Positions 9,353 through 28,840 of a stretch of DNA of 28,840 bases are shown here, piece by piece; positions within the stretch are counted from its first letter, which is position 1, and each line of letters opens with the position of its first letter. Location: the IMG/VR virus record IMGVR_UViG_2609459848_000003, one strand, 5' to 3'. A program made the position numbers and the translations under genes. The DNA is from a virus. Taxonomy: Duplodnaviria; Heunggongvirae; Uroviricota; Caudoviricetes. The notes beneath the pieces are model-generated. The model saw only the letters and a list, made by a program, of their open reading frames with translations. It was not told the DNA's origin and made no database searches.

Positions 9353-9366
9353 CCTTGCTCCTTAAT

Positions 9367-9978
9367 TCAAAGAGAAAAGCTAAAGCCCAGAAGGGAAGCC
9401 AAAGAACTTGAGGATTGGTTAAACGTGCTGTGCAATGCGAAGGTCATTGGGAATGACTTAAATTCAGTAACCTGATCTCGCGCATAGGTGACATCGCCGG
9501 TAGTGACCGGGAATACCGTCATCTCATTTTCCAGTTTGGTTAAGCCGGAAGACAGCAACCGATAAATACGCACATTGAGCAAATATTTAGACGGTATATT
9601 CCCGGTACCGTCCGGATTGATCACCCGACTTTTTGCCGTCTTAAACCAGTCCAAAACGAGGCCATCAACGGTATCCCTGACCATCATTGTTATCTGCCCA
9701 GGCGAACGCTCCGTTGGTTGAAGGATATTCCCTCCGCCGATTTTAATCGTTTCATATTCGATGCTGTAATCGTGGTAGGTAATGTCTTTGGCAAAGAAGT
9801 CTGCCCCCTCCAGTCCATCAACTTCGACAGAGAACTGCCATCCTTGCGCGAACAGCATTTTGTTCATGATGATTGACGTCAGCTTACCAACTTCCCGCTC
9901 ACCAACGCCGGAGCCAAATAATGTCGTCGTTAATGCCGAAGATACATAAGACTTTACTGAAGCAACATTAAGCCCCAT
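9367..9978 (-). CDS. Tail structural protein (203 aa; tube- or baseplate-associated)
   Basis: Position within the tail operon; no motif recognised. Confidence 0.35.
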   Translation of the reverse strand: MGLNVASVKSYVSSALTTTLFGSGVGEREVGKLTSIIMNKMLFAQGWQFSVEVDGLEGADFFAKDITYHDYSIEYETIKIGGGNILQPTERSPGQITMMVRDTVDGLVLDWFKTAKSRVINPDGTGNIPSKYLLNVRIYRLLSSGLTKLENEMTVFPVTTGDVTYARDQVTEFKSFPMTFALHSTFNQSSSSLASLLGFSFSL

Positions 9979-9988
9979 ATCAGCCCCC

Positions 9989-10579
<591 letters not shown>

Positions 10580-10635
10580 TTAACAGATTCTACGAGTTGT
10601 CATTTGTGACAGTATGCTCGCAATCGTAGTGATTA

Positions 10636-11175
10636 CTACCACCAACTGCTAGCTTTCTTCTCTCTAGCTTTTCCTTCGCTTTGCAGTAAATCTTTACTTC
10701 CTGTAGAAATATTTCTATTTGCATCAGCCTCAGACTGAATTACATCTGTCTTAGCTGCTCTCTCCTTCAACTCCTGCTCTATAAAATCGTTTTCTCGCTG
10801 GACACGAGCCGCTTTTGCTTGCAGTTCGAGTTTCATGCTTTCGAGTTGCAGCTTGCGAAGCTCATCCTCATAAGCTTGATCTCGCTTCTTGTCATTTGCT
10901 AGCTCGGCTTCTCGTTTCGCTCTACGTTCATTTTCTGCAGCAACACGCTGTTTTTCGCGTGCAGCAGCGGCAGATGCTGCTTTTTCTCTTCTAATACGTT
11001 CAGCTTGTGCTTGTTGGCGAATAAGTTCTTTTCTGGCATCCTCAGCTTGCTGCTCTTTAGCTCGCCCTTCATTTTCCGCTTGAGCAATAGCAGCAATTTG
11101 ACTTTGCAACGAGTTAGCCAAGGCAGTGCCTACACTAAACGTAGAAAAGATTAGAAATAAAATAATTTTATTCAT
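10636..11175 (-). CDS. Secreted charged coiled-coil protein (179 aa)
   Basis: N-terminal signal peptide MNKIILFLIFSTFSVGTALA, then a long E/R/K/A/Q-rich predicted helix (TolA domain II-like composition). Stop-to-start distance from the lipoprotein gene is 3 bp. Confidence 0.6.
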   Translation of the reverse strand: MNKIILFLIFSTFSVGTALANSLQSQIAAIAQAENEGRAKEQQAEDARKELIRQQAQAERIRREKAASAAAAREKQRVAAENERRAKREAELANDKKRDQAYEDELRKLQLESMKLELQAKAARVQRENDFIEQELKERAAKTDVIQSEADANRNISTGSKDLLQSEGKAREKKASSWW

Positions 11176-11178
11176 AAA

Positions 11179-11700
11179 TTATTTCTTTTCTGGACAAGTA
11201 GCATTTGGCTGAATTCGAGTTTCATTATCTTTAGTTGAAATAAGCACAGCAAGCCCCGTTGTAAACTGGCATGCTTTACCAACTTGAGTTGAAGTGAACA
11301 CCTTAGTTCCTTCTTTATAAGTCAGTGAAACACCTTCAACAATTGTTTTATCACTAACCAAAGAACCAGCCGCTGCACCAAGAGCCGCACCACCAGTACC
11401 GCCAGCTACAGCACCCAGTGTCGATGTGCCTTTAACATTATAACCGGCAACGCCCCCAGCAACAGCTCCCAGTACCGCACCAAATGTCTGTGCCGCTTCT
11501 TTATTAGCTTTATTATCAACTTTCACTTTAGCTGGAAGCACAGAGATAATATTGACTGTCTTTGTTTCCTGCTTCGAATTCAATTGAGCGGTATCATAAA
11601 CATCGGCAGCATAATCAGCACCGCTAGATTGACACCCAGAAAGAAGAATTGCAGATACAACAAGAGCGCATAAAGTATACTTTTTAGACATAAGAATCAT
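11179..11700 (-). CDS. SlyB/Pcp-family outer-membrane lipoprotein with glycine zipper (173 aa)
   Basis: Lipobox LLSGC after a hydrophobic signal; ADVYDTAQL motif and glycine zipper GAVLGAVAGGVAGYNVKGTSTLGAVAGGTGGAALGAAAG resemble E. coli SlyB as I recall it; downstream GVSLTYKEGTKVF resembles the SlyB beta region. Confidence 0.65.
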   Translation of the reverse strand: MILMSKKYTLCALVVSAILLSGCQSSGADYAADVYDTAQLNSKQETKTVNIISVLPAKVKVDNKANKEAAQTFGAVLGAVAGGVAGYNVKGTSTLGAVAGGTGGAALGAAAGSLVSDKTIVEGVSLTYKEGTKVFTSTQVGKACQFTTGLAVLISTKDNETRIQPNATCPEKK

Positions 11701-11981
11701 CCCAGAAAAACAAAAACCGGCGAGAAGTTACCACGAGAACGGAAAGTAAACAAGAATACTCCCATTGACTTATATCAATTAATCAACTTTTTATAAGCTA
11801 TCCCTAACTTATTGTGTATAGCTGAAAAGTCAGAGACAAGTTCACCATCTGCATTATTTCTTAAGTTAATAGTTTATTGCTAACTTAATTTATGCATCGA
11901 CTATTGATATCCATCTTAAAGTTACAATATCCCTCTGCATTATTTTTCATCACAAATAATATATCTATTGCACGACACTAA

Positions 11982-11998
11982 TCTGCTCTAATAAATTT
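11982..11998. promoter_or_regulatory. C1 repressor operator-like site (Op51-like)
   Basis: TCTGCTCTAATAAATTT matches the remembered P1 C1 operator consensus ATTGCTCTAATAAATTT at 15 of 17 positions; lies in the AT-rich divergent promoter region upstream of c4-icd-ant. Confidence 0.55.
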
Positions 11999-15404: not shown

Positions 15405-15639
15405 TAGATTGCTCTAATCTGGAGTCACCTGGCGTTTTCAGTATGGATTTTCTTTGGCGCGGTCTGGCCATTAGGGATCATGTTTGCTGCAACATTTCTT
15501 CTGATGTGGATATTCACCCTTCCCGGTGATTTCTATAGAAAAAAAGCCAGACATTGATACAATCGTTGCGGGTGCTTGAGGCTATCTGCTTCAGGCATTA
15601 CCCGAAAAGCAGATAGAAGAAAGCCCCAGATAACATTAA

Positions 15640-15720
15640 GCGTCCTGCAAGACGCTTAACATTAATCTGAGGCAATATCTATGCTTAGCATACGTAGATT
15701 AGCCTCTTACCGACCAAAAG
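15640..15720 (-). ncRNA. sok: Sok-like antisense RNA (approximate position)
   Basis: Inferred from the hok/mok architecture; the leader GGGTGCTTGAGGCT...AGCCTCTTACCG...CAAGGAGAAG resembles the R1 hok mRNA leader from memory. Exact ends not determined. Confidence 0.3.
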
Positions 15721-15887
15721 GTCAAGGAGAAGCAGGCTATGAAGCAGCAAAAAGCGATGTTAATCGCTCTGATCGTCATCTGTTTAACCGTCATTGCGAC
15801 GGCACTGGTAACGAGGAAAGACCTCTGCGAGGTACGAATCCGAACCAGCCAGACGGAGGTCGCTGTCTTCACAGCCTACGAATCTGA
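15681..15887 (+). CDS. mok: Mok (modulator of killing) reading frame overlapping hok
   Basis: 68-aa ORF starting 58 nt upstream of hok and overlapping it in another frame, as in the hok/mok/sok arrangement. Confidence 0.55.
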   Translation: MLSIRRLASYRPKGQGEAGYEAAKSDVNRSDRHLFNRHCDGTGNEERPLRGTNPNQPDGGRCLHSLRI

Positions 15888-15894
15888 AAGGTAA
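15739..15894 (+). CDS. hok: Hok/Gef-family type I toxin (51 aa)
   Basis: Hand translation MKQQKAMLIALIVICLTVIATALVTRKDLCEVRIRTSQTEVAVFTAYESER; SD AAGGAG 9 nt upstream. Close to Gef/HokC and Hok of plasmid R1 ([28 protein letters not shown]). Below the 60-aa cutoff of the ORF track. Confidence 0.85.
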   Translation: MKQQKAMLIALIVICLTVIATALVTRKDLCEVRIRTSQTEVAVFTAYESER

Positions 15895-15971
15895 GAGACC
15901 TGGCGTGGAGAGATCCCCGCCACTCTTCGTGTGTCAGGTATCCTCAATGCACCCTTTCCTCTCCAAATAAA

Positions 15972-15991
15972 AAAGCTCCCGAAGGAGCTTT
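15972..15991 (-). terminator. Bidirectional rho-independent terminator between hok and the leftward late operon
   Basis: Stem AAAGCTCC-cgaa-GGAGCTTT; on the minus strand it is followed by TTTTTTATTT. Confidence 0.6.
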
Positions 15992-16010
15992 AAAATACAA
16001 GGGATGACTC

Positions 16011-16520
16011 TTAATCCCAATCAATCCAGTTGTAGACGATACGAAGTGACGGGCGCACAGCGGCAGTCACATCTTCGGTACTAAAGTCGATTGCATCACT
16101 GTAGATTTTGCAGTCCAACATTTCAATTGTTGTAGCAGCTTTTGTCACAGCGTTAACCCCGGAAGATTTGGATTCAGGGGTAGCAGCCATCGTGATATCA
16201 ACATAGTCCTTCGCCGCAATGCGATCCTTGATGAACTGAAGAATATCGCCTTCGATAGTCTCCACGCACTGGACCTGGATTTCCCCAGAGTTTCGAATTG
16301 GTCCGTGCTGGTTGAACTTCACACCATTCGGACCATAGTCCTCCACATCCTCGCGGGTCATTTCAGGAATTTGCGACGTGCGAACCAGTACGCTGATATC
16401 TTCATGGCCTGCAAAAGTGAGCTGGAATTCAGAAGATACCAGTCGTTCGCCTTTGGCCGCGTTGGCAGTATAGCGGCCCTTAATAAATTTACGGTTTCCC
16501 TTAGTGTTATTGTGCCCCAT
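16011..16520 (-). CDS. Phage late structural protein (169 aa), possibly tail tube-like
   Basis: Last gene of the leftward late operon, followed by a terminator; no motif recognised. Confidence 0.35.
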   Translation of the reverse strand: MGHNNTKGNRKFIKGRYTANAAKGERLVSSEFQLTFAGHEDISVLVRTSQIPEMTREDVEDYGPNGVKFNQHGPIRNSGEIQVQCVETIEGDILQFIKDRIAAKDYVDITMAATPESKSSGVNAVTKAATTIEMLDCKIYSDAIDFSTEDVTAAVRPSLRIVYNWIDWD

Positions 16521-16531
16521 ATAAAATCCTT

Positions 16532-17113
16532 TTACTGGAACGCCCGAACAATATCGGAGCTGTTATATATCGAAGAACCGGTCAACTGGAGGTTGACGGT
16601 GTTTTTCAGGAAATGCCCATTGCTGTCCCTGGGCGCATCGAGATCGAAACTTATGTCCTGGATAGCGACATCAATGATGTTGATCCGGCGACCAATGTTT
16701 AGCGTCACACGCTCCGGGATTCGACCACCAATACTGGCATCTTTAAGTTCCGGGCTAATCATCGCTGACAATGCGGCGATAGCTCCTGAAACCTCCGTGA
16801 ATGGGTCAAACAAAGCGATGAAAGTTACTGGCAGCGTGAAAGTCGGCGGTGTTCCCCCTTCCCAAACCATTAAGCTGTTCCAACGGGCAACCGACGTTGT
16901 TTCAGTACCAACCTGCGCAAAACCACTGAAGGCACCAGCAACAGATCCCATGGACATACCGGTAAACGGCGCTTCCCAATTCTGGGCCATGTTCATTGCC
17001 GCTCCCTGGCTGATATATCCGGTAACCTGGTACTGAGAGTTCGTTAAAGTAACTTTCAGATATGGCGATACACCGTCAGCCTGGCTGTAAACCCCATAAG
17101 GTATAGGTGCCAT
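16532..17113 (-). CDS. Phage late structural protein (193 aa)
   Basis: ATG-start ORF in the operon with the sheath and capsid genes. Confidence 0.35.
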   Translation of the reverse strand: MAPIPYGVYSQADGVSPYLKVTLTNSQYQVTGYISQGAAMNMAQNWEAPFTGMSMGSVAGAFSGFAQVGTETTSVARWNSLMVWEGGTPPTFTLPVTFIALFDPFTEVSGAIAALSAMISPELKDASIGGRIPERVTLNIGRRINIIDVAIQDISFDLDAPRDSNGHFLKNTVNLQLTGSSIYNSSDIVRAFQ

Positions 17114-17148
17114 TCAAGTTAAAGGCCGGAGTTCTCCGGCCTCCTCCT

Positions 17149-17964
17149 TTAGCCGAGGCGCTTACGGCGCAGTTTCATTGACTTTTTGCGGGCCAGTTTT
17201 GCCGCGCCGGTCTGGGCTTTACGACGCGCTTTTTTCAGCGCCGATTTTTGAGCCGCAGTCAGACGTTTTTTACGCAGGCGTTTACGGATGAGTTTGATCT
17301 CACCGTTACGAACAACCTTCTTAAATGCTTCAGTCAGCATTTCATCAGAAGTGCCAGCAACAACAAACGCCGCTTCCAGTTCGTCACGGTCGTCGCTATC
17401 TAAACCAGCGATAGAGGCACCAACATCAGCGGCTGCGTCGTCGTCTTCATCGTCAGCCAGTGCTTCGATCAGGTCATCATCTACACCGCATGCTGCGAGG
17501 AAGTCAGCAACATTTGCCCATGCTTCGTTATAGGCATCGTCCTGTTCTTCTGTAACTTCGGAGTCGTCGTCATCAGAGATACCAGCGATAGCCTGAACGA
17601 AACCATCAAGGGAGTCGAAAGTCAGATCACCGCTATCAGCCCAGGCGAAAACGGCGTCGGCCGCATCACTCAACGCATTCTGCATAGCACTTCGATTTGC
17701 AGCTTCCAGAATCATCTGGTGCGCCTGTTCGACGGTCCATTCTTTACCGTCTTTCCCTTCCAGGATTTGCTCAGGAGCCGGGGCAGATGGAACGTTATCG
17801 TTAGTCTGTGCCGCCGGTTCCGGATTATTATTAATAACCGGATCTGTTGGCGGTTCGGCGCTTGCTCGGGCAGACTCCATCAGCTGCACAGGATCAGAGT
17901 TCAAAGCGAAACGGGACAGTCCATTCCCCAAAAATGCCCCGGATTGAAAAAAGTTTTTGCTCAT
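17149..17964 (-). CDS. Acidic protein with polybasic C-terminal tail (271 aa)
   Basis: D/E-rich core (DDDDSEVTEEQDD...ADDEDDDAAAD...DSDDRDELE) and a K/R-rich C-terminus (IRKRLRKKRLTAAQKSALKKARRKAQ...KLRRKRLG). Confidence 0.45.
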   Translation of the reverse strand: MSKNFFQSGAFLGNGLSRFALNSDPVQLMESARASAEPPTDPVINNNPEPAAQTNDNVPSAPAPEQILEGKDGKEWTVEQAHQMILEAANRSAMQNALSDAADAVFAWADSGDLTFDSLDGFVQAIAGISDDDDSEVTEEQDDAYNEAWANVADFLAACGVDDDLIEALADDEDDDAAADVGASIAGLDSDDRDELEAAFVVAGTSDEMLTEAFKKVVRNGEIKLIRKRLRKKRLTAAQKSALKKARRKAQTGAAKLARKKSMKLRRKRLG

Positions 17965-17973
17965 TGTATTCCC

Positions 17974-19563
17974 TTACTTAATAAGCAGCGGTACGCCCTG
18001 GATACGACGGGCTACGCCAGTCGGGCAGCAGGCCCAGACTACTTCCCATTTATCGAATTCCGCCTGCGTAACTTTCAGCACATACGGTTCTGTACCGTCA
18101 GCATCAGGATCACGAGGAGCCACCAGAGCGCCGGAGGCGACAAAGCGATCTAAAAGTTTGGTCATCCCTTTAGTCAGGCCAGCCGCAGTAATACCGTCCG
18201 GGCTATGCTTCATCTGTCGGGCTAACTGGACAAAGAAACGGCTGATTGCATTCATCAGGGATGGGACGTGCTGGAAGTGCAGATAGTTATCCTGCGTGCA
18301 GCAAGTTAAAGCATCGTCGATGATCATCTGGCCAGAGGTGCCAACAGATACTTTATTGAGACGGCCCTTGACCATTGCTTCTTCGTCCGGGGTATCTTCC
18401 GGATACAGCGGTTGAATTGACGCACGAGCAATGACGGCACGTTCTTCACCAGCCGGTGAGTAATGCCAACCGCCGACATCAGAGTTTTTCTTGACGCCAC
18501 GAGCTTTCGCCGCATACGCCGCGCCAGACAGACCGAAGACCACACGGGATTGGGTCCATTTGTCTTTGCAGGAGAACGGGAAGTGATAGACAGCACAGCT
18601 TACATAATCGGTACCAAGTAAACCGGTATCTTCAACAGCAGAGATCGCTTCCGTGTACGTCAATGTCGGTTTGACATCAAAGAAGCCATCAATCAGGCGA
18701 TCTGCACAGATTTTACCTAATGCGGTGATAGCCGCATTGTCATAGCAGCCCAGGCCAAGAACAGCGGTGTACATGTACGGCGCATTGTTCAGCACTTTCA
18801 CCGCACGCAGGTACGCAGCGGTTGAGATTTTCGACTGATCACCGTTGGTACCACCAGTGAACGCCAGCGATTTTTTATTTGTTACTTTCGCCGTCGAAAT
18901 CAGCTCTTCATTAACAACCGCGCGCAGATATTTAGAACGGGCTTCCAGAGCCGTAGGCAGATAACACAAGCGACCCATGTCATCTTTCGCTTCTTCCGCC
19001 AAAGACACAGTGTGTGTCTCCAGGGTCGTTACCACGCCGAGCGAAGTCGTCTGGGTCAGTTTTAAGAGGAAGCGTTCATTACCCGCGCTATCCGCTGTTG
19101 CCGTTTCGATGGTTAACTCACGGGTAGGTGAAATACACGGATCACCATCATCAACGTAGATAGCAAAGGCTTCGCCACTATCAAGTTCAATTTCAGAACC
19201 GTATGGCAACGCACTGTAAGCCGGTTCGCCTGATTCATCGAACATAATAATCGGGAACTTCGCATCATCCGGAACAGCACGAACAACATAACCAGACGTT
19301 TGCTGAATAGCTTCGTACACATGACGAATTGGTTCGAACTGTGAGCCGGAAGACGGCTTCAGCGGTTCGCCGAGAACATCTTCGTAATTGGACTCAGTAA
19401 CCGCCAGAACAGTAAACGGCTTGCCACGCGCAAATACGCCAATACCAGCCCACAAGCTGCTATTTAATGCAACACCGGTAGATAACGTCGCATCGGCATT
19501 GATCGGGCTAACCGCGACGCCGGATGCATTACCTAATGACTGTTGAATTGAATATTGAGACAT
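17974..19563 (-). CDS. Tail sheath protein (529 aa)
   Basis: Size, position next to the capsid gene and general sheath-like sequence character. Confidence 0.55.
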   Translation of the reverse strand: MSQYSIQQSLGNASGVAVSPINADATLSTGVALNSSLWAGIGVFARGKPFTVLAVTESNYEDVLGEPLKPSSGSQFEPIRHVYEAIQQTSGYVVRAVPDDAKFPIIMFDESGEPAYSALPYGSEIELDSGEAFAIYVDDGDPCISPTRELTIETATADSAGNERFLLKLTQTTSLGVVTTLETHTVSLAEEAKDDMGRLCYLPTALEARSKYLRAVVNEELISTAKVTNKKSLAFTGGTNGDQSKISTAAYLRAVKVLNNAPYMYTAVLGLGCYDNAAITALGKICADRLIDGFFDVKPTLTYTEAISAVEDTGLLGTDYVSCAVYHFPFSCKDKWTQSRVVFGLSGAAYAAKARGVKKNSDVGGWHYSPAGEERAVIARASIQPLYPEDTPDEEAMVKGRLNKVSVGTSGQMIIDDALTCCTQDNYLHFQHVPSLMNAISRFFVQLARQMKHSPDGITAAGLTKGMTKLLDRFVASGALVAPRDPDADGTEPYVLKVTQAEFDKWEVVWACCPTGVARRIQGVPLLIK

Positions 19564-19623
19564 AACTTTCCCTGTTATGCGCCCCGCACGGGGGCGCTAT
19601 GTTAAACGGAGAACTTCCCCTGA

Positions 19624-21351
19624 TTACTCAGAGTCACCGGCATCAATCGTGTCGCCGCTTATGAAGTTAAGCCCGCCTTTTTTGGCCATTGTCAGCGTTA
19701 CACGAGTGAAGTAATCAGCGCCGTTGCGTGGGTGCATATCGTTGATAGCCGAACCCCACAGCGTGGTACGGTTGACCAGCGCCGGAGTGGTCGGATGCTG
19801 GAACGGGATGGCCGGGACAGCATCACCAGTCACGAAGCCTGCTTTACCCGGATTTTCATCACGGACGTAGCACAGCACATCCATCGAGCTGAACTGAATG
19901 TTCTCTGTCGTTAAGTTCTTACAAATACCAGCAGGTACTTCGTACACTTTCACGTTACCGAACAGGGTACCGATGTAGTGAACATACGGAGTCTGGATAT
20001 AGTCTTCGGCTGGCTGGAAGAAATCCTTCGGCAACTGTTTGAAGAAAGATGCTGCATCAGCACCAGCAAACATCCCCATCGCACCAGAAGATTTAACGCG
20101 CTCAATAATGTCGCGATATACAGTCTGGAATTTGCCACGAATGATGGTTGCCCATACATCAAAGGACTGGTTAACCGGCAGAGCGATGTCAAAGGTGTCG
20201 TTCGCAAGAGTACGCCAGATCATGATGCGAAGACGCAGCATATCCTGTTCATGAGACAGGTATTCCTTCAGGGTGCGGAACTGTAGGGAACCCAGGTCCA
20301 GACCAAATTCACGCTGTGCTTCATACGCCGCCTGTACCGTGTGCTCAGCCGCGATAACGAACTGGCTTGGGAACAGGGTGTATTTCTTCATTTCGTGGTT
20401 GATCAGCGGGATCAGCTCAGGAGCGGCTTCAATATTGATTTCCGTCTCAATTGCGATCTCAGTGCCTTTATCCGGCGCTTTGGAGAACGACAGGGCAATC
20501 TGACCAATGTTGTAGTTCAGAGAGCAGGTAACAGTGATTTGCTCACCAGCAGCATTAGTAAACGAGTGAAGTAGGCTGCCGGAACCGTTATCAACAACAG
20601 ACTTAATACGGTTAACGTAGATATTAGTGCGACCTTTTCGGATTGGTACATTCTGGCCTTCGAAGTCTTCCATCTTGAAGGTTGCGGTTTTGCTGGTGCC
20701 ATCGGAGCTTGCCACCAGCACATAGCGGCGGCGTAACTGGCTGTACACACCGACGGATTGCATGTCCAGAACATCACCAGCAGCATAAGAACCAAAAGAG
20801 GAACCTGCCACGTTAAAGACTTCATAGATGTCGGACTGGTCACGCGTAACCGGAATGAAGGTACACGCATCAGCGGTAGCTGCCCCCAACTGAACAGGCA
20901 GGATCATCGCGAGGAATAAAGGCAGACGCATAACACCGTCAGAAACGCTCATCATCTCTGCTGCGACGGATTCCAGCATCGCTTTATTAGTGGCATCCAT
21001 GCTATTGCGGGTGGACTCAATCAGGCAGTTTTCCAGCGTCTGGTGGCAGGAGGCCAGAATTTCCGGACGCGGCATAGATTTATGTGCTGCGGCGTAGTCA
21101 GCCAGTGCACTTGCCCACGCTGTAGCGATTTGAGCGGTGGCATTATCAGAGATACCCGCAAAAACCGGGTCTTTACGTGCAGCTTCAAGGATAGATGCGG
21201 CACGCGCGGCATCATCTTTAATGAATTGGTTATCAGTACCGAACTGCGCAGTGCTTGCCCAGCCAAGCACAGCTTTAGAGCGTTTTGCGATATCTGCAAT
21301 ACGATTCTGGTATTCGCGTAAGTTACTCAATTTACTCTTCCTTAAACACAA
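19624..21351 (-). CDS. Major capsid protein (575 aa as tracked; likely start is TTG at 21330)
   Basis: Large late ORF immediately downstream of parS/parB, as gene 23 is in P1. The tracked start is TTG; an in-frame TTG at 21330 preceded by SD AAGGAAG is the more likely initiation codon (MSNLREYQ...). Confidence 0.5.
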   Translation of the reverse strand: MCLRKSKLSNLREYQNRIADIAKRSKAVLGWASTAQFGTDNQFIKDDAARAASILEAARKDPVFAGISDNATAQIATAWASALADYAAAHKSMPRPEILASCHQTLENCLIESTRNSMDATNKAMLESVAAEMMSVSDGVMRLPLFLAMILPVQLGAATADACTFIPVTRDQSDIYEVFNVAGSSFGSYAAGDVLDMQSVGVYSQLRRRYVLVASSDGTSKTATFKMEDFEGQNVPIRKGRTNIYVNRIKSVVDNGSGSLLHSFTNAAGEQITVTCSLNYNIGQIALSFSKAPDKGTEIAIETEINIEAAPELIPLINHEMKKYTLFPSQFVIAAEHTVQAAYEAQREFGLDLGSLQFRTLKEYLSHEQDMLRLRIMIWRTLANDTFDIALPVNQSFDVWATIIRGKFQTVYRDIIERVKSSGAMGMFAGADAASFFKQLPKDFFQPAEDYIQTPYVHYIGTLFGNVKVYEVPAGICKNLTTENIQFSSMDVLCYVRDENPGKAGFVTGDAVPAIPFQHPTTPALVNRTTLWGSAINDMHPRNGADYFTRVTLTMAKKGGLNFISGDTIDAGDSE

Positions 21352-21459
21352 GGCACTTGTGTGAATCCCTTTTCGGAAGAGATTTTATTGAAAGTCACTT
21401 GTTGACTTTCTCGCTAAAAGTAATTTTTTAAATTTTTTGTGCGGGGGAGGGGGGCAAGT

Positions 21460-21545
21460 AAAACAGGCGTGAAACCGTGGGAATTTCAGCCTGAAATTTT
21501 TCATGAATATCTATATATATCATATATTTATACATGAAATAGACG
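21460..21545. promoter_or_regulatory. parS: parS-like partition site: box-A-type heptamers flanking an AT-rich IHF-like core
   Basis: GTGAAAC (21469-21475), ATTTCAG (21483-21489), TGAAATT (21492-21498) and TGAAAT (21535-21540) resemble P1 box A (ATTTCAC) in both orientations around atatctatatatatcatatattta, which fits the IHF consensus WATCAANNNNTTR with one mismatch; immediately downstream of parB. Confidence 0.55.
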
Positions 21546-21596
21546 CGGGACATTTTAGACAGGGGAGGGGGCTAAAGCCGCCTCCCACCAGCGGGA

Positions 21597-22562
21597 TTAT
21601 TCCCCAGCAGACATTTTCCCAATGATTTTTTTTATTGCTTCGTCAATTTCAGTTTGCACTTCAGACGGGAGTCTGGAGAACTCGTAGGCGACAACCCGTT
21701 TTTTCGGATCGGACTTCTTTCGGGCATATTGGCGACGGTCAGAGAAGTCTCGCAGCTTCTCAACCACCACAGATTTAACCGGCGCGGGCTTCAGGCTTTT
21801 GCTTTCCGCTTTGAAGATAGCCAGTATCTTCGCTTTATCCTCTTTCGCGCCCTCAGTCTCTGCAATTCGTTCGCGCACCGTATCAACCAGCTCTTCAATC
21901 GGCACGCTTTTAGCGTTAGCATCCTCGGCGATCTGGAGCAGTAACTGGTAATCTGGAAGGGCGAGATCGCTGGCTACGGGGAAGACAGCAATCATCTCAT
22001 CCGGCACCGCGGCAGCCTGGAAAGCTCGCGTCACTTTAGCCTTTGAGATGTTCTCAGCTCGGGCGATCTCTTCTTTGGTCATATTCTTACCGTACATAAC
22101 CTCGAAGCGTTTACCCAGCTCGCGCAGAGTGTGTTCGCGGGCTGTCTGGATATCAATGGCCAGCTGGCGGGCATCCGCCAGGCTGATCTCATCTTTCGTC
22201 ACCAGAATCTCAAATTTCGTTTCATTGAAGATACACGCAGCACGGCGACGCGATCCGTCCAATACCTCAATGCGCTCCCCAACCATACGACCGATAGCCG
22301 GGAAGAACTGTTGCAATTTAATGGTGCGGGAAATATCGCTTACCGACTCAGGGGTGAGCAGAGACTGATCGCGGCCGTTAACTGCCGGGTCAACGAACGT
22401 GCGCGACTCAATCTCACCACTCAGCACGACGGTAAGCAAGAATTTAGCCTGGCGGCCAGATTTTAGGGTAAAGGTTTTGGTGCCTTCACTGCCTTCAAGC
22501 ATGCGAGCAAACTCGGAGCTATTCTTGCCCAGCACTCGTCCACGGGAAACTATTTTTTTCAT
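21597..22562 (-). CDS. parB: Partition protein ParB (321 aa)
   Basis: Family resemblance to P1 ParB from memory (e.g. GRQA, VDGSRRRA, KAKVTRAFQAA, DYQLL); 4-bp overlap with parA. Confidence 0.85.
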   Translation of the reverse strand: MKKIVSRGRVLGKNSSEFARMLEGSEGTKTFTLKSGRQAKFLLTVVLSGEIESRTFVDPAVNGRDQSLLTPESVSDISRTIKLQQFFPAIGRMVGERIEVLDGSRRRAACIFNETKFEILVTKDEISLADARQLAIDIQTAREHTLRELGKRFEVMYGKNMTKEEIARAENISKAKVTRAFQAAAVPDEMIAVFPVASDLALPDYQLLLQIAEDANAKSVPIEELVDTVRERIAETEGAKEDKAKILAIFKAESKSLKPAPVKSVVVEKLRDFSDRRQYARKKSDPKKRVVAYEFSRLPSEVQTEIDEAIKKIIGKMSAGE

Positions 22563-23770
22563 GCCGCCTCACCCCTAACAAACTCAATTCGATCAAACAC
22601 AGCCTTAGTGAAACGCTCGGCCTCGGTTCGTGCCTTCTTCAGCGCCTCTGCACTGCCTGGATACGATTGCGGGTTGGCACTGATTACGGTGTCGAAAGAC
22701 TCGCCGCATCGCTCAAAGCCATCCAGACGAGGCAGAGAAGAGTCCAGAATGTTGCTGGCGTAAACCTCACGCGCAAGGCTGTGTGATGTCTCGTGATCGC
22801 GCTTGCCGGTCATCTTCGACATAAAACCAATGCTGGCGCTCAAACGCGGTTCTACGCCTTCCTCCTCCAGTTGCTCCAGCATTTCTGGCAGACGGGTGAG
22901 ATATTTCAGTGTTGAGTGGAAGTCAACCTGGGCTGGTGGGGTAGGGGTAAGCAGCAAATCGCTGGCCGCCAGACCGTTGAGCAGGAACGGATCCAGGTGT
23001 GGACCGGTATCAATAAAGATAAAGTCATAATCATCCGCAACACGATCAATGATATTGCGTCGAAGGATTTCGTACTGATTTTGTCCGGGAAGATGCTCTT
23101 CAACCAACTCTTTCCATTGGCTGGCAACAAAGCCATCGTCGATAGAGGCTGGAATCACGTCTACGCCAGGAACGATGGTCGGACGAATCACCTCTTTGCG
23201 TAGCGTCTCCGCGTCCAGGTCGTTCAGCATCGCCTGCGCGGCGGTTTCCAGGATGGAACCAATACTGTGAGTATGGTCGAGGAACATTGTGCTGGATGCC
23301 TGAGGGTCAAGGTCAATTACCAGAATGCGCAGATCGTGACGCAGTAAATCCTGATGCACACGCAGAGCGTGCGCCAACGTGACTGTGGAAACCGTTTTGG
23401 ATACGCCACCCTTCAGGTTTACGACAAAAATAACGTAAGGCGATTTGTGAATGTCGCGATATTTGGGGATCTTACGGTGGGCATAGATATCAATGACGTT
23501 CTGGATGGTCAGCGCGTACTGTTCAACGTTACCGACCTGTTTCTTGTTGAACTGGTACCCATCATCTTCCATCTCTTTGATGGCCTGCTCCACAATGCGG
23601 CGGCTCAGCTTCGGCAACTTTGCCACAGCGTTACGAGTGAACGTCTGATAATACTCGGTCTGATTGAACTCTTTGCGCTGATCTTCAATATCCTGACTCA
23701 TGGCCTTAAGTAATGCGCTTGCACGAAGAGCTATGGTGCCGACACCGCCGTAATCGCGTTTCATCATCAT
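22559..23770 (-). CDS. parA: Partition ATPase ParA (type Ia, 403 aa)
   Basis: Deviant Walker A VNLKGGVSKTVSTV; LRILVIDLDPQ; C-terminal PRLDGFERCGESFDTVISANP...AVFDRIEF close to P1 ParA from memory; an N-terminal extension typical of type Ia ParA. Confidence 0.9.
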   Translation of the reverse strand: MMMKRDYGGVGTIALRASALLKAMSQDIEDQRKEFNQTEYYQTFTRNAVAKLPKLSRRIVEQAIKEMEDDGYQFNKKQVGNVEQYALTIQNVIDIYAHRKIPKYRDIHKSPYVIFVVNLKGGVSKTVSTVTLAHALRVHQDLLRHDLRILVIDLDPQASSTMFLDHTHSIGSILETAAQAMLNDLDAETLRKEVIRPTIVPGVDVIPASIDDGFVASQWKELVEEHLPGQNQYEILRRNIIDRVADDYDFIFIDTGPHLDPFLLNGLAASDLLLTPTPPAQVDFHSTLKYLTRLPEMLEQLEEEGVEPRLSASIGFMSKMTGKRDHETSHSLAREVYASNILDSSLPRLDGFERCGESFDTVISANPQSYPGSAEALKKARTEAERFTKAVFDRIEFVRGEAA

Positions 23771-23813
23771 CTCCTTATCATTTCGTATGAGTGAATTGTA
23801 CGTTTGATTCTGC

Positions 23814-23856
23814 TACGTGCAACTTTTTTTGATTCGTGCGTCAATTATTGCACGTA
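23814..23856. promoter_or_regulatory. par operon promoter/operator inverted repeat
   Basis: TACGTGCAA (23814-23822) and its reverse complement TTGCACGTA (23848-23856) between parA and incA. Confidence 0.4.
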
Positions 23857-23878
23857 AAGAAATGGCGATGAGGCTATT

Positions 23879-24165
23879 AGATGTGTGCTGGAGGGATGAT
23901 GCAGGACCAGAATGTGCGATAGAGGGAAGTCGCATTGAATTATGTGCTGTGGAGGGATCGCTGGTATCAAATATGTGTGCTGGAGGGAAAGGCAGAGAAT
24001 TACATGTGCACTGGAGGGAAAAACGGATGGACAGATGTGTGCTGGAGGGAAAGTCTGGGCAAACTGCGGGGCGTCCCCCTCCAGCGCACATCAAAAACAG
24101 GAAATTGGACAAGCCTTCCCGGCAGCACACATTTTTTTAATGCAGCTTCCCTCCAGCACACACTT
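23879..24165. repeat. incA: incA copy-control iterons (about nine 19-bp repeats, six in one orientation and three inverted)
   Basis: GATGTGTGCTGGAGGGAAA-type repeats at about 23879, 23910, 23938, 23971, 24001 and 24042; inverted CCCTCCAGC(A/G)CACA copies at about 24071, 24115 and 24145. Confidence 0.9.
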
Positions 24166-25024
24166 ATTCTGGGAGTTTCAGCTTTGGATTGCGAGAATGG
24201 ACGATTACAAAACTTTCCCGGCCTTTCTTCTCAATTGAACAGTCGAGATAGCCGATTGTTTTAAGCTGTTCTATCGCTTTCTTAATGATACGGTTTTGCT
24301 CGCCAACAGCTGACTGCAAAGCCAGGCGCTCACGGATTCGGGCGAAAGATAGCGGCAACGGATTCTGCGGAAGGCTTTCGATGAAAGTGTAAATGGCTTG
24401 TGCAGCTTCTTTCTTCGGAAGGGCACGCAAGGCGTGGTGTTGCAACAGAACGCGATAATCAAGCTGGAACAGCTCCCACAGCTTCGAATCAGCCTCCAGC
24501 TCTATCAGATCAAGGTCAGCATCAAAACGACCGACCTTTAGCAGACCAGTCTGATAGCCGCCTTTAGCATCTTTTCCGCGCTTAAAAGCGATACCCTTGT
24601 TACGTAAGCGTCCAAGTGATTCATGAATGGTTAAACGCAGTTTCGCATCCAGACGTTTTGAGGGGAAACCACAGGCTTTAGCGAATTCCTGAAACGATAA
24701 CTGGATGGTGTTTGAGGACAAGCCGTATTTGCTGAACGCGTAGATGACACCGATCCACGTTTTGAAATCAGTATCCATATCGAGTCGAGGACCGGTGATT
24801 TTAATATCATCGTAACCCTCGGCTTTAGCTATCTCCAGCTGGGAAAACGCTTTGGTGGCATCAATCTCTTTACTTTCTCCTTTGCTCTTTGATGGCTTCG
24901 GCACGAATACCCCCAAGCGCATCAACGCTACAGGCTGCACAGTGTTGTTTGAATTAACTGTTAGTTCTTTTGCCTTACTTTCAATGTCTGCGTAAAGAAT
25001 ATCGGAGATAAAGGATTGATTCAT
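24164..25024 (-). CDS. repA: Plasmid replication initiator RepA (286 aa)
   Basis: 286-aa ORF flanked by iteron arrays on both sides, matching the P1 R-replicon layout. Confidence 0.9.
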   Translation of the reverse strand: MNQSFISDILYADIESKAKELTVNSNNTVQPVALMRLGVFVPKPSKSKGESKEIDATKAFSQLEIAKAEGYDDIKITGPRLDMDTDFKTWIGVIYAFSKYGLSSNTIQLSFQEFAKACGFPSKRLDAKLRLTIHESLGRLRNKGIAFKRGKDAKGGYQTGLLKVGRFDADLDLIELEADSKLWELFQLDYRVLLQHHALRALPKKEAAQAIYTFIESLPQNPLPLSFARIRERLALQSAVGEQNRIIKKAIEQLKTIGYLDCSIEKKGRESFVIVHSRNPKLKLPE

Positions 25025-25040
25025 ATTACTTTTTCCGAAT

Positions 25041-25301
25041 TATGTGGATAGTTTTTATAAGCGGTGATAACTACCCAGGCTTTCCCGTCAGCACACATCC
25101 TATATCCCGCCAGCACACATTAGCAACCCGTCAGCACACATTTTTATCCCTCCAGCACACATCGGTTTCCCTCCAGCACACATCGCGATACACTTCTAAG
25201 CCAGACGTGGCGCGGCCTGCAACGATCAGGGATCTATATGGATCTAATTGGGATCTGTATGGACCTAATTATTGGATCTACTCAGTGGATAATGTGGATA
25301 A
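25041..25301. other. Plasmid origin oriR: DnaA boxes, Dam GATC cluster, iterons
   Basis: Tandem DnaA boxes AGTGGATAA/TGTGGATAA (25283-25301); five GATC within 25223-25277 at roughly 10-bp spacing; one more DnaA-like box TGTGGATAG at 25043-25051 adjacent to the repA start. Confidence 0.85.
25081..25185. repeat. incC/origin iterons (five direct 19-bp repeats)
   Basis: CAGCACACAT cores at about 25088, 25110, 25131, 25152 and 25174, all in the same orientation, immediately upstream of repA. Confidence 0.9.
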
Positions 25302-25342
25302 GTGAAAAACCGGCCAACAAAGCCGGTTGGAAGGAAACCGTA

Positions 25343-25735
25343 TTATTCTACGCTTTCGATAAGAAGACCATGTTCATAACATTTAAGCTCATCGCCTTCA
25401 TACAGGAATTGGTATCCAACACCACCACCTTCCGGAACATTAGGGAATAAATCATCACTTACCGAAGAACAAATCACACCAATGCAGCGATCAACGCCTT
25501 CTCGTTCTTCAGTGCTGAAAAAATCCTCTTCGGTAAGAACATGAGTACATTGCTCATCAGCATAGGTCGGAAATACATGCTCGATGCAATCCGGGTGTTT
25601 TAAACCAAGCTGATCGGCAAGCTCGAAAGCACGACGGTATTGTTCAGATCCTGGCTTGCCAACAGTGATGTGCTCAATTTTGTAGATTGAAGTCGCTTTG
25701 TTGATAGTTTGCTTTACTGTTACTTTATCAGACAT
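25343..25735 (-). CDS. Hypothetical protein (130 aa)
   Basis: ATG-start ORF next to oriR; no motif recognised. Confidence 0.4.
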   Translation of the reverse strand: MSDKVTVKQTINKATSIYKIEHITVGKPGSEQYRRAFELADQLGLKHPDCIEHVFPTYADEQCTHVLTEEDFFSTEEREGVDRCIGVICSSVSDDLFPNVPEGGGVGYQFLYEGDELKCYEHGLLIESVE

Positions 25736-25746
25736 AAAAATCCCTT

Positions 25747-26079
25747 TTAGTTACCGCTGATAGCGCGGTTGTAATCATTAACGTTGCGATTCTTCCTGTT
25801 AATCCCCATCAGCATCGTTTCTGTATCAAGGATATACGCTGGCAGATCATCAAAATATTCACTGCTAAACTCTGGCATTCTGCACATAAATGCACTTTTG
25901 GGGGCAGGGTGGTTAACCTTTGTCGGCGTCGGCGTTAAATTCGCTGATCGACTCCCGGAGCAACCGCTGAGTGTCAGCAGGAATGCGCTGGCGAACATTA
26001 CCCGCCGCAACCAGTTGTTTCTGAACTTCAGCTTTTCGTTCCATTTGCCTGTCAGCATACTTGGCTTGTTCTGATTCAT
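25747..26079 (-). CDS. Lipoprotein (o-spanin-like), overlapped with the upstream membrane protein gene; true start probably internal
   Basis: Lipobox FLLTLSGC and a Pro/Thr-rich mature part (TPTPTKVNHPAP); the 5' part overlaps the 3' part of ORF 25913-26305 in another frame. Confidence 0.5.
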   Translation of the reverse strand: MNQNKPSMLTGKWNEKLKFRNNWLRRVMFASAFLLTLSGCSGSRSANLTPTPTKVNHPAPKSAFMCRMPEFSSEYFDDLPAYILDTETMLMGINRKNRNVNDYNRAISGN

Positions 26080-26305
26080 TTTTCACTTCCTGGCTGTGAA
26101 AATGTTGCTCTGCTTTGTTCATCGTCTCAATGGTCTGGTTAAGATCCATTATTGACTTATCACGTTCCTTAACAGCCTGATCAAGACTGCCAATTTTCTC
26201 TATGGCTTGCTTTAGCTGATGACGTTCCCATGCAAACCCAGCACCAACAAGTGCGCAAATCAGAACAAGAACACCAGTAGCAGCAAGTTTCTCCTTCAAA
26301 GACAA
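25913..26305 (-). CDS. N-terminally anchored coiled-coil membrane protein (i-spanin-like, 130 aa); start uncertain
   Basis: N-terminal transmembrane segment LAATGVLVLICALVGAGFAW followed by a charged helical region; the tracked start is TTG, 3 bp from the IS66 terminus. Confidence 0.45.
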   Translation of the reverse strand: MSLKEKLAATGVLVLICALVGAGFAWERHQLKQAIEKIGSLDQAVKERDKSIMDLNQTIETMNKAEQHFHSQEVKNESEQAKYADRQMERKAEVQKQLVAAGNVRQRIPADTQRLLRESISEFNADADKG

Positions 26306-26338
26306 AGCGTAAGCGTCAACGGAGCACCGTATTGACGC

Positions 26339-27952
26339 TTATTTATTGGTGAGTACTACGTTCCATGGCAGGAGTTCGTCAACTCGGTTGGAAGGCCATT
26401 CCGGCAGTACGCTCAGGATATGGCGCAGATACGCTTCCGGATCGATACCGTTCAGACGGCAGGTGCCGATCAGCCCGTACAACAGTGCTCCACGCTCGCC
26501 GCCGTGATCGCTGCCAAAGAACATAAAGTTTTTCTTTCCGAGACAGACTGCACGAAGCGCTCTTTCCGCAGCATTATTATCCGCCTCCGCCAGACCGTCA
26601 TCACTGTAATAACAGAGGGCATCCCACTGATTCAGTACATAGCTGAACGCTTCGCCCAGTCTGGATTTTTTCGACAGCGTACCATTCTTCTCCACCATCC
26701 ATTCATGCAGCGACGTCAGTAACACTTTGCTTCGCTGCTGCCTGACGGCAAGACGCTCTGACTCCGGTAATCCCCGTATTTCATCCTCGATGGCGTACAG
26801 TTCACTGATTCGCTTCAGGGCTTCTTCTGCCGTCGCACTTTTGCTGCTGATGTATACATCGTGGATTTTTCGCCGGGCATGGGCCCAGCACGCAACTTCT
26901 GTCAGTGCACCACCTTCACGTTCTGCACTGAACAACCTGTCGTAACCTGTGAACGCATCCGCCTGCAGGATACCCCGGAAGGGGCGGAGGTGTTGCTCCG
27001 GGTGTTTCCCCTGCCGGTTCGGCGAGTACGCGAACCAGACCGCTGGAGGAGATGACGAACCCACATTGCGATCATCCCGGACATACGTCCAGATACGCCC
27101 TGTTTTCGCCTTTTTCTGACCCGGTGCCAGTACCTTTACCGGTGTGTCATCAGTGTGAACCTTGCGGGTGTTCATTACATAACGGTACAGGGCATCATTC
27201 ACCGGTGTCATTAACTGGCAGCACGCGTCAACCCAGTTGGAGAGTAAGGCCCGGCTCAGTTCGACACCCTGGCGGGCAAAGATTTCACTCTGACGATACA
27301 GTGGCAGATGTTCGCAGTATTTTCCCGTTAACACGCGGGCAAGTAATCCGGGGCCCGCGATACCACGCTCTATCGGGCGGGACGGCGCCGGTGCTTCAAC
27401 AATACAGTCACATTTTGTACAGGCTTTTTTTACCCGTTCTGTGCGGATCACTTTCAGGGCACTGCTCACCAGTTCCAGCTGTTCAGCGCTGACTTCCCCC
27501 AGATAATCCAGCTCACCGCCACACTCCGGGCAACAGCTTTCTTCTGGCTCCAGGCGGTGTATTTCACGGGGAAGGTGTGCCGGTAACGGACGACGATGGC
27601 GCGACTGTCGCAACTGGCGGGGAACCTGAGGATCGTCTTCCCGCCCACTGTAACGATCGCTGTCCTGTTCACGTTGTTTCAGCAGAGCCTCAGCCAGTTC
27701 AACTTCACGACGCAGTTTTTCAGAACGGGTACCGAACAGCATCCGGCGCAGTTTTTCTATCTGAGCCCGCAGATGTTCTATTTCCCGTTCATCTTCTTCG
27801 ATCTTTTCTTCGGCACGTGTCAGTGCAGAGCGCAGGAAGGCTTCCGTCTCTTCAACCAGACTCAGTTGCTGGTCTTTCTGACGGAGGGCTTCAGCCTGCT
27901 CAGAGAGCAACCTTTCCAGCTCTGCGATGCGAATGAGGTATTTCTGACTCAT
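26339..27952 (-). CDS. tnpC: IS66-family transposase TnpC (537 aa)
   Basis: Leucine-zipper-like N-terminus, CPECGG zinc-binding motif and LPLYRQ, typical of IS66 transposases. Confidence 0.9.
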   Translation of the reverse strand: MSQKYLIRIAELERLLSEQAEALRQKDQQLSLVEETEAFLRSALTRAEEKIEEDEREIEHLRAQIEKLRRMLFGTRSEKLRREVELAEALLKQREQDSDRYSGREDDPQVPRQLRQSRHRRPLPAHLPREIHRLEPEESCCPECGGELDYLGEVSAEQLELVSSALKVIRTERVKKACTKCDCIVEAPAPSRPIERGIAGPGLLARVLTGKYCEHLPLYRQSEIFARQGVELSRALLSNWVDACCQLMTPVNDALYRYVMNTRKVHTDDTPVKVLAPGQKKAKTGRIWTYVRDDRNVGSSSPPAVWFAYSPNRQGKHPEQHLRPFRGILQADAFTGYDRLFSAEREGGALTEVACWAHARRKIHDVYISSKSATAEEALKRISELYAIEDEIRGLPESERLAVRQQRSKVLLTSLHEWMVEKNGTLSKKSRLGEAFSYVLNQWDALCYYSDDGLAEADNNAAERALRAVCLGKKNFMFFGSDHGGERGALLYGLIGTCRLNGIDPEAYLRHILSVLPEWPSNRVDELLPWNVVLTNK

Positions 27953-27982
27953 GACCGTTTTTATAATGCGGTCAGGAGTTTT

Positions 27983-28333
27983 TTACAACATTGTCAGTGA
28001 GTTACGGCTGGATGTTTTTGGCTGACGCCAGTCCAGCTTATCGAGGAGCATTGCCAGTTGCGAGCGGGTAATGGATACCTTGCCGTCACGTACCGCAGGC
28101 CAGATAAACTGGCCTTCCTCCAGGCGTTTGGTGAACAGGCACAGACCATCAGCATCAGCCCAAAGAATTTTGACGGTGTCACCCCGTCGGCCACGGAAGA
28201 TAAACAGGTGACCGGAGAAGGGATTATCATTCAGCACATGTTGTACCTGTTCTCCCAGTCCGTTGAAGGATTTACGCATATCGGTAACGCCGGCAACGAG
28301 CCAGATACGGGTACCTGATGGGAGTGAGATCAT
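27983..28333 (-). CDS. tnpB: IS66-family accessory protein TnpB (orf2, 116 aa)
   Basis: MISLPSGTRIWLVAGVTDMRKSFNGL...FIFRGRRGDTVKILWADADGLCLFTKRLE is the characteristic IS66 Orf2 sequence. Confidence 0.9.
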   Translation of the reverse strand: MISLPSGTRIWLVAGVTDMRKSFNGLGEQVQHVLNDNPFSGHLFIFRGRRGDTVKILWADADGLCLFTKRLEEGQFIWPAVRDGKVSITRSQLAMLLDKLDWRQPKTSSRNSLTML

Positions 28334-28755
28334 CTTCCCCTCCCGGTCAGTTCACGGATCAACACTGTGAGCAGCTCTGGCGATGGATTTTCCAGCGTCA
28401 TGTTACCGTGACGGAATTCCACCTTGCAGGAACTGGCACTGACTCTGGTCTGAGTGGAAGTGGATAAAGACGGCGCAATGGCCGCCACAGGTTCTTTCTG
28501 CTCATCCGGCGTTATTTCTACAGGTAATAATTCAACGCCAGTGTCAGAAGAGGTCGTTACCGGAAGACGCCGCGAAACACGCCCTTCGTTCTGCCAGAGC
28601 CTGAGCCATTTGAAAATAACATTATCATTGACGCCATTTTCACGTGCAATCTGTGCAACACAAGCTCCAGGTTGTGATGCCAGTTCCACCATACGAAGTT
28701 TGAATTCATTCGAATAGTTTTTACGAGGTTCTTTTCGCCAGTCCTGTAATTCCAT
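28330..28755 (-). CDS. tnpA: IS66-family accessory protein TnpA (orf1, 141 aa)
   Basis: Position first in the IS; helix-turn-helix-like region NYSNEFKLRMVELASQPGACVAQIARENGVNDNVIFKWL; 4-bp overlap with tnpB. Confidence 0.8.
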   Translation of the reverse strand: MELQDWRKEPRKNYSNEFKLRMVELASQPGACVAQIARENGVNDNVIFKWLRLWQNEGRVSRRLPVTTSSDTGVELLPVEITPDEQKEPVAAIAPSLSTSTQTRVSASSCKVEFRHGNMTLENPSPELLTVLIRELTGRGR

Positions 28756-28840
28756 ACTTAGATGTCCGTCTATATCAGATGGGCGTCTAAGTTACCAATT
28801 CTCGTCTGATGGCTACATACGGCGGTCAGTTTACGCTTAC

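Follow-up and report, generated by a model that had tools for sequence, protein, structure and literature searches.

ISEc23 between codons 9 and 10 of ppfA, the predicted i-spanin gene of P1, at the end of a draft phage-plasmid contig

The window analysed here, a stretch of 28,840 bp, is the entire contig JNRM01000036.1 of the draft WGS assembly GCA_000704705.1; read as its reverse complement, the locus fetched from this contig shows no difference from window positions 15913–28840. The window closes with an insertion sequence that abuts a spanin-like gene, and this arrangement raises the question of where the gene natively begins, what the insertion has separated from it, and why the sequence stops at the opposite end of the element. 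The explanation that we hold with high confidence is that an ISEc23 copy lies inside the coding sequence of ppfA, that the result is most likely a null allele, and that the contig was broken by the repeat. The finding is an ordinary one: both the IS and the gene are known, the draft contig simply ends there, and insertions of IS elements into prophage genes are common.

Positions 1–26308 of the window are collinear with approximately nt 36436–63915 of P1 (NC_005856) at 97–98% identity, the only replacements relative to P1 being found in the sim and rlf regions, both of which are known to vary. The genes parB, parA, repA, oriR, upfA, mlp and ppfA are located to the left of the IS. At its other end, the contig stops 45 nt inside the invertible C-segment of P1, beside cixR, which makes this another place where the population of molecules is heterogeneous.

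The features of the mobile element are the following.

26309–28840, minus strand: complete ISEc23 (IS66 family), 2532 bp, identified by 100% identity to plasmid copies.
26309–26332, no strand assigned: terminal inverted repeat distal to tnpC, abutting ppfA and starting with GTAAGCG, found by inverted-repeat search.
28817–28840, no strand assigned: terminal inverted repeat proximal to tnpA, with whose final base the window, and hence the contig, ends.
28330–28755, minus strand: tnpA, IS66 accessory HTH protein of 141 aa (Pfam HTH_Tnp_1, E 5e-12; NCBIfam IS66_ISRel24_TnpA, 83 bits with a cut-off of 74).
27983–28333, minus strand: tnpB, IS66 Orf2-type accessory protein of 116 aa (Pfam TnpB_IS66, E 1e-36; NCBIfam IS66_TnpB, 120.9 bits).
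26339–27952, minus strand: tnpC, DDE transposase of 537 aa (Pfam DDE_Tnp_IS66, 9e-98; NCBIfam transpos_IS66, 452 bits).

The assignment to the IS66 family, already made in the original prediction, is borne out by the Pfam and NCBIfam matches, by the 24-nt inverted repeats and by the complete identity to ISEc23 copies. The 2532 bases from 26309 to 28840 align over positions 1–2532 with 100% identity to many plasmids of PLSDB, where PGAP labels the matching copies 'IS66-like element ISEc23 family transposase'; the name ISEc23 used here is that of the PGAP annotation of identical copies, rather than of the ISfinder type sequence. All three transposition proteins score over the curated cut-offs of Pfam and NCBIfam, and TnpC also matches the Pfam domains zf-IS66, LZ_Tnp_IS66 and IS66_C. 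ISEc23 is hosted by E. coli and other Enterobacteriaceae, on both plasmids and chromosomes, and classic IS66-family members in ISfinder measure about 2.4–2.7 kb, a range in which the 2532 bp of this copy fall. The occurrence of ISEc23 on plasmids has been described, for example, for pEC958 (PMC4398462).

The longest inverted repeat of the region is formed by the pairing of 26309–26332 with 28817–28840, 24 nt that are 83% complementary, and both arms begin with GTAAGCG. The motif was predicted to begin at 26309 and does so in the sequence, and the terminal bases of the window, ...TTTACGCTTAC, are its reverse complement. Inverted repeats of 20–30 bp starting with GTAAGCG and direct repeats of 8 bp are characteristic of the IS66 family (PMC11946415), as is a layout of three ORFs encoding TnpA, TnpB and the DDE transposase (PMC12888890). 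In the window, tnpA, tnpB and tnpC are intact and are read from the minus strand in the same direction as ppfA; the tnpA stop and the tnpB start overlap as ATGA (TCAT on the plus strand at 28330–28333), and the TAA stop of tnpC, at 26341–26339, is located 30 nt inside the IS end. This copy of ISEc23 is full-length and apparently functional.

The genes adjoining the element are the following.

25913–26308, minus strand: remnant of ppfA, predicted i-spanin gene, codons 10–140 plus the stop codon, delimited by alignment to P1.
25747–26079, minus strand: mlp, predicted o-spanin lipoprotein gene, intact, with one residue different from P1 Mlp.
25343–25735, minus strand: upfA, the last gene in the same transcription direction.

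The gene described as spanin-like in the original prediction proved to be ppfA of a P1-like phage-plasmid, a predicted i-spanin gene: full-length P1 PpfA matches phrog_89, 'Rz-like spanin', with an E value of 5e-25. Residues ~18–36 (AATGVLVLICALVGAGFAW) are hydrophobic and the remainder of the protein is charged, an organization that fits the N-terminal transmembrane segment and charged domain of an i-spanin; the transmembrane segment is kept in the remnant. The mlp gene overlaps the 3′ part of ppfA (native extent 25913–26335) in another frame, and its product carries the lipobox LTLSGC (LSGC) and matches phrog_30284 (4e-78) and phrog_456, both 'Rz-like spanin', which is also the annotation of mlp in RefSeq P1. 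Judged by these sequence features, ppfA and mlp are predicted to form the overlapped two-component spanin of P1, equivalent to Rz/Rz1. The same role has been assigned to them in the literature on sequence grounds, their function being experimentally unverified (PMC9025707), and a comparison of 77 P1-like phage-plasmids lists ppfA with 20 other genes as 'extremely conserved' (PMC9603915). A terminator-like hairpin (25328–25308) follows upfA.

The position of the insertion within ppfA is defined by comparison with P1, in which the gene strand reads CAGGAGGAAGAC ATG TCA TTC TTT TCT ACG TTA AAA ACA / GCT TTG TCT TTG AAG GAG, the slash marking the point where the window switches to the IS. Native PpfA has 140 aa and begins MSFFSTLKT-ALSLKEK; the IS is thus located between codons 9 and 10, 27 nt into the coding sequence. 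The 140-aa protein is found in the RefSeq/PGAP annotation of P1 and of five other plasmids. The native ATG is present 27 nt upstream of the insertion point in P1, P7, pNT1F10-94k and relatives at 93–95% identity, with a conserved AGGAGG 5 nt ahead of it. Furthermore, of the four relatives at 93–95% identity, three vary from P1 within the first 36 nt of ppfA at nt 6, 9 and 15 only, all of them synonymous third positions, and the fourth is unchanged there; the peptide MSFFSTLKTALS is kept in all four. Since changes relative to P1 are confined to synonymous third positions, these first 36 nt are coding.

The open reading frame 25913–26305 on the minus strand, with its TTG at 26305–26303, was correctly described, as was the frame that stays open into the IS up to a TAA at 26341–26339, which is the stop codon of tnpC. 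However, the TTG at 26305 encodes Leu11 of PpfA, and neither this TTG nor the one at 26299 is preceded by a purine-rich Shine-Dalgarno sequence. The placement of the IS 3 bp from the gene's start is therefore right as to the junction and wrong as to the start; the '3 bp' arises from the way in which the ORF was tracked. Relatives without the IS in which the gene begins at this very position, with the element intergenic, would have counted against the original prediction; in the uninterrupted relatives that we compared the reverse is found, ppfA starting upstream and the insertion point falling inside the coding sequence. An exact-product look-up of the 130-aa TTG-initiated ORF returned no record, whereas a 128-aa variant is recorded on JNRM01000036.1. 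The ORF 25913–26305 should be labelled as a 5′-truncated ppfA pseudogene interrupted by ISEc23, not as a 130-aa gene with a TTG start.

What has been separated from the gene can be read from the empty site. The closest finished relative, pNT1F10-94k, is 99.8% identical over the adjacent 6.3 kb; at its empty site GACAAAGC is present once, ppfA is intact, and upfB comes next. The two sigma-70 promoters predicted for ppfA in P1 are located 42–68 and ~260–290 nt upstream of the ATG, positions that place them, too, beyond the IS. The remnant in the window is devoid of the ATG, codons 1–9, the Shine-Dalgarno sequence and the predicted promoters, and its 131 residues are identical to those of P1 PpfA; given this identity, the insertion looks recent. 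Of the two outcomes originally proposed, the one in which the gene has lost its own 5′ end and promoter is borne out by the empty-site relatives. The other, a fusion of the gene to IS sequence, is not: tnpC ends at its normal TAA and no start codon lies between this TAA and the TTG.

The ends of the element and the expected target-site duplication were examined by fetching four ISEc23 copies from elsewhere, each identical to the copy in the window, and comparing their flanks. In three of them (L022–L024) the exact IS string is flanked by perfect 8-bp direct repeats, which adjoin the bases equivalent to 26309 and 28840. As the repeats abut the same first and last bases in these three copies, both IS boundaries are exact. 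The flanks of the fourth copy (L025) do not match, which indicates that IS-mediated rearrangement, or recombination between copies, also occurs. In the window, the left flank is the following.

26301–26308, no strand assigned: presumed left copy of the target site, GACAAAGC, an 8-mer of which the empty sites of pNT1F10-94k and P1 have one copy each.

On the gene strand this octamer reads GCTTTGTC and corresponds to Ala10, Leu11 and part of Ser12 of PpfA. The contig contains the left flank only, and the second copy would fall beyond it. If the insertion was simple, CAGTTTACGCTTAC-GACAAAGC-TGTTTTTAACGTAGAAAAGAATGACAT is expected at the right junction, with CAGTTTACGCTTAC followed by GACAAAGCTGTTTTTAACGTAGAAAAGAATGACAT. 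Exact strings for the left junction and for this predicted right junction had no match in IMG/VR, a degenerate pattern for either junction had none in GTDB representative genomes and JGI metagenomes, and an 821-bp query across the left junction was covered to 80% or more by no record of PLSDB or of the 5,426 complete E. coli genomes.

The final base of the IS is the final base of the window, as originally noted; the window being the whole contig and the boundary being exact in the flanked copies, this coincidence is precise. The explanation then offered, an assembly break at a repeated IS, fits a complete draft contig. Assemblers stop at the last base of a repeat when several exits exist, and 4720 of the 5426 complete E. 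coli genomes (87%) contain sequence resembling the IS-end half of the junction query, at a median of 3 places. The assembler would have lacked a unique path out of a multi-copy IS, and the source genome very probably holds more than one copy of ISEc23. The end of the contig is to be read as a repeat-induced assembly break.

A simple insertion accompanied by an 8-bp duplication is the reading that we favour, at roughly two in three, its right flank lying beyond the contig. The alternative that deserves most attention, less probable yet far from negligible, is that the IS marks a deletion, an inversion or a cointegrate with another replicon or the chromosome, produced by recombination between ISEc23 copies, in which case position 28840 would be followed by DNA other than the 5′ end of ppfA and upfB, and no matching 8-bp duplication would be found. 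The copy with non-matching flanks, one of the four identical copies, illustrates such an outcome; moreover, other P1-like contigs have an IS91-family element or IS1 abutting a truncated ppfA with unrelated DNA beyond it (copper-resistance genes, or the chromosomal-looking genes ecotin, mqo and ada-alkB), and a contig that stops at the IS contains nothing contradictory. On the other hand, simple insertion with a duplication is what three of the four sampled copies show, collinearity with P1 holds throughout the rest of the contig, and ppfA is kept contiguous in 606 of the 627 PLSDB plasmids that carry it.

Two further explanations would alter the meaning of the junction itself, and we regard both as very improbable. 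In one, ppfA natively starts at a TTG (26305 or 26299), so that the IS would lie in a leader or between genes, with no damage to the coding sequence. Even on uninterrupted contigs (L002, L005), some gene callers do start at the second TTG and give 128 aa; yet the ribosome-binding motif and its 5-nt spacing belong to the upstream ATG and not to the TTGs, the 36 nt that follow the ATG change at synonymous third positions only in the relatives at 93–95% identity and the peptide is conserved, RefSeq and PGAP both give 140 aa, and the promoters would be displaced even so. The other, which we consider marginally less probable still, is an assembly chimera, in which a collapsed IS was wrongly joined to the P1-like contig. 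The assembly is indeed a short-read draft, and the junction is absent from the finished genomes and plasmids searched (PLSDB and complete E. coli). Against this, the break falls exactly at the first base of the IS, a look-up gives the same contig in two samples and two further similar places, and precise IS-end junctions are rarely fabricated by assemblers.

Overall, it is very likely that a full-length ISEc23 transposed into the ppfA coding sequence between codons 9 and 10, so that 2.5 kb would now separate the last 131 codons from the ATG, the Shine-Dalgarno sequence and the two predicted sigma-70 promoters. As what is left of the gene has no start codon provided with a ribosome-binding site, and no promoter-like site nearby, ppfA is most likely a polar null allele, as far as can be judged from the sequence. 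In the case of a simple insertion, the 5′ part on the far side of the IS would code for no more than MSFFSTLKTALS before a TAA formed at the junction.

Transcription of mlp and upfA would then depend on read-through from the IS. A sequence scan between the tnpC stop and ppfA revealed neither a promoter-like nor a terminator-like site, and, since the IS genes are oriented in the same direction as ppfA, weak read-through into ppfA′-mlp-upfA is possible. Low-level expression of ppfA itself is possible through tnpABC read-through and re-initiation at the TTG 33 nt past the tnpC stop. The idea of a promoter at the IS end, either outward-facing or hybrid, was considered and rejected: the inverted repeat has a TTGACG, but no –10 hexamer is found at a spacing of 16–18 nt and the scan was empty there. 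Likewise rejected was a TnpC-PpfA fusion, the TAA separating the two ORFs and TnpC having its normal length of 537 aa; the 11 codons from this TAA to the TTG, in frame with ppfA, contain no start codon.

A P1-like prophage-plasmid with this allele is predicted to be without i-spanin, and the outer-membrane step of lysis may be weakened. A genome-wide CRISPRi study found both ppfA and mlp of P1 to be non-essential (PMC10695390); ppfA is dispensable for P1 plaque formation in laboratory conditions. Furthermore, oriR, repA and parAB are intact and at least 1 kb away from the IS, so that plasmid maintenance should be unaffected. Since ppfA and mlp are non-essential for plaque formation, the element probably persists as a plasmid and may still be viable as a phage whose final lysis step is weakened.

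Mobile elements are found next to ppfA in other P1-like contigs as well. Look-ups of truncated PpfA products gave junctions at ppfA nt 10, 14, 167, 169 and 181–186; nt 167 adjoins IS1, nt 169 an IS91-family element and nt 181–186 an IS3-family element, nt 14 adjoins an element end that we take to be IS3-like, and the sequence adjoining nt 10 has no assigned element. This amounts to at least six independent mobile-element junctions involving four identified kinds of IS (ISEc23, IS1, IS3 family and IS91 family), a frequency that is biased upwards, the examples having come from searching for truncated products. ppfA was rejected as an IS hotspot: it is contiguous in 606 of the 627 PLSDB plasmids with a ppfA match (~97%), and the truncated examples reflect the mode of search. 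It is improbable, in our estimate, that disruption of ppfA/mlp is recurrent and selected, as part of a phage-to-plasmid decay or as a preferred docking site for cargo beside the replicon, or that a truncated PpfA is still made by read-through from the IS and is functional.

Among known systems, the locus shares gene order and position with P1, Mlp differing by one residue and PpfA residues 10–140 being identical; however, ppfA is contiguous in P1, whereas in the window it is deprived of its first 9 codons, its Shine-Dalgarno sequence and its promoters. ISEc23 copies elsewhere agree with this one in their 2532 bp, their three ORFs and their ends, and the insertion site alone distinguishes the copy described here. 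Finally, the other disruptions of ppfA involve other elements and other positions, and none of them is an ISEc23 inserted at nt 27/28.

Disruption of ppfA, the predicted i-spanin gene of P1, is also encountered on other P1-like contigs, where the gene is adjoined by IS1, IS3-family or IS91-family transposase genes, or by other sequence. These junctions fall at nt 10, 14, 167, 169 and 181-186 of the gene, and on some of the interrupted contigs copper-resistance or chromosomal-looking genes are found on the far side. Notwithstanding such examples, ppfA is contiguous in ~97% of the PLSDB copies.

Junctions in ppfA on other contigs (retrieved locus, position within it)
L004, position 113
L009, position 128
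L011 and L016, position 9981
L012, positions 8687-9995
L013, L015, L017 and L018, position 9983
L019, position 4765
L020, position 1224

A further source of variation is the A5 run in ppfA codons 7-9 (TTA AAA ACA), which two Logan assemblies (L006 and L007) give at different lengths, one as A4 and the other as A6. Either reading would shift the frame of ppfA, and this frameshift probably accounts for the 128-aa ppfA gene calls. The variation itself could reflect sequencing error or real slippage.

The overlapping lipoprotein gene mlp has been named i-spanin, and ppfA o-spanin (PMC9025707). Within window 25747-26305, Mlp carries a lipobox (LSGC) and PpfA an N-terminal transmembrane segment. Such sequence features indicate the opposite assignment, with mlp as the predicted o-spanin gene and ppfA as the predicted i-spanin gene. 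The full mlp product is a 110-aa lipoprotein precursor, absent from the gene calls of both the window contig and related contigs; since these give only a 43-46-aa ORF covering the 3′ part of mlp (25747-26079), many assemblies carry an incomplete annotation of the o-spanin.

At its left end, the window starts 45 nt within the invertible C-segment of P1 (window 1-55), with the cixR crossover site TCTTAAACCAAGGTATTGGA at ~36-55, identical to P1 there. Because the contig begins inside this segment, both of its ends lie at recombination-variable boundaries.

Comparison by megablast with the P1 isolate OP279344 gave no match for 10607-11984 and 15418-15969; these two stretches represent the sim and rlf regions, reported to be highly variable among P1-like phage-plasmids. 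Finally, a 222-bp unit is present in 3.2 tandem copies (window 352-1055; 96% matches) within the constant portion of tail-fibre gene S, at the location where P1 annotates the repeated elements b1 and b2; its copy number appears to differ from that of the P1 isolate compared.
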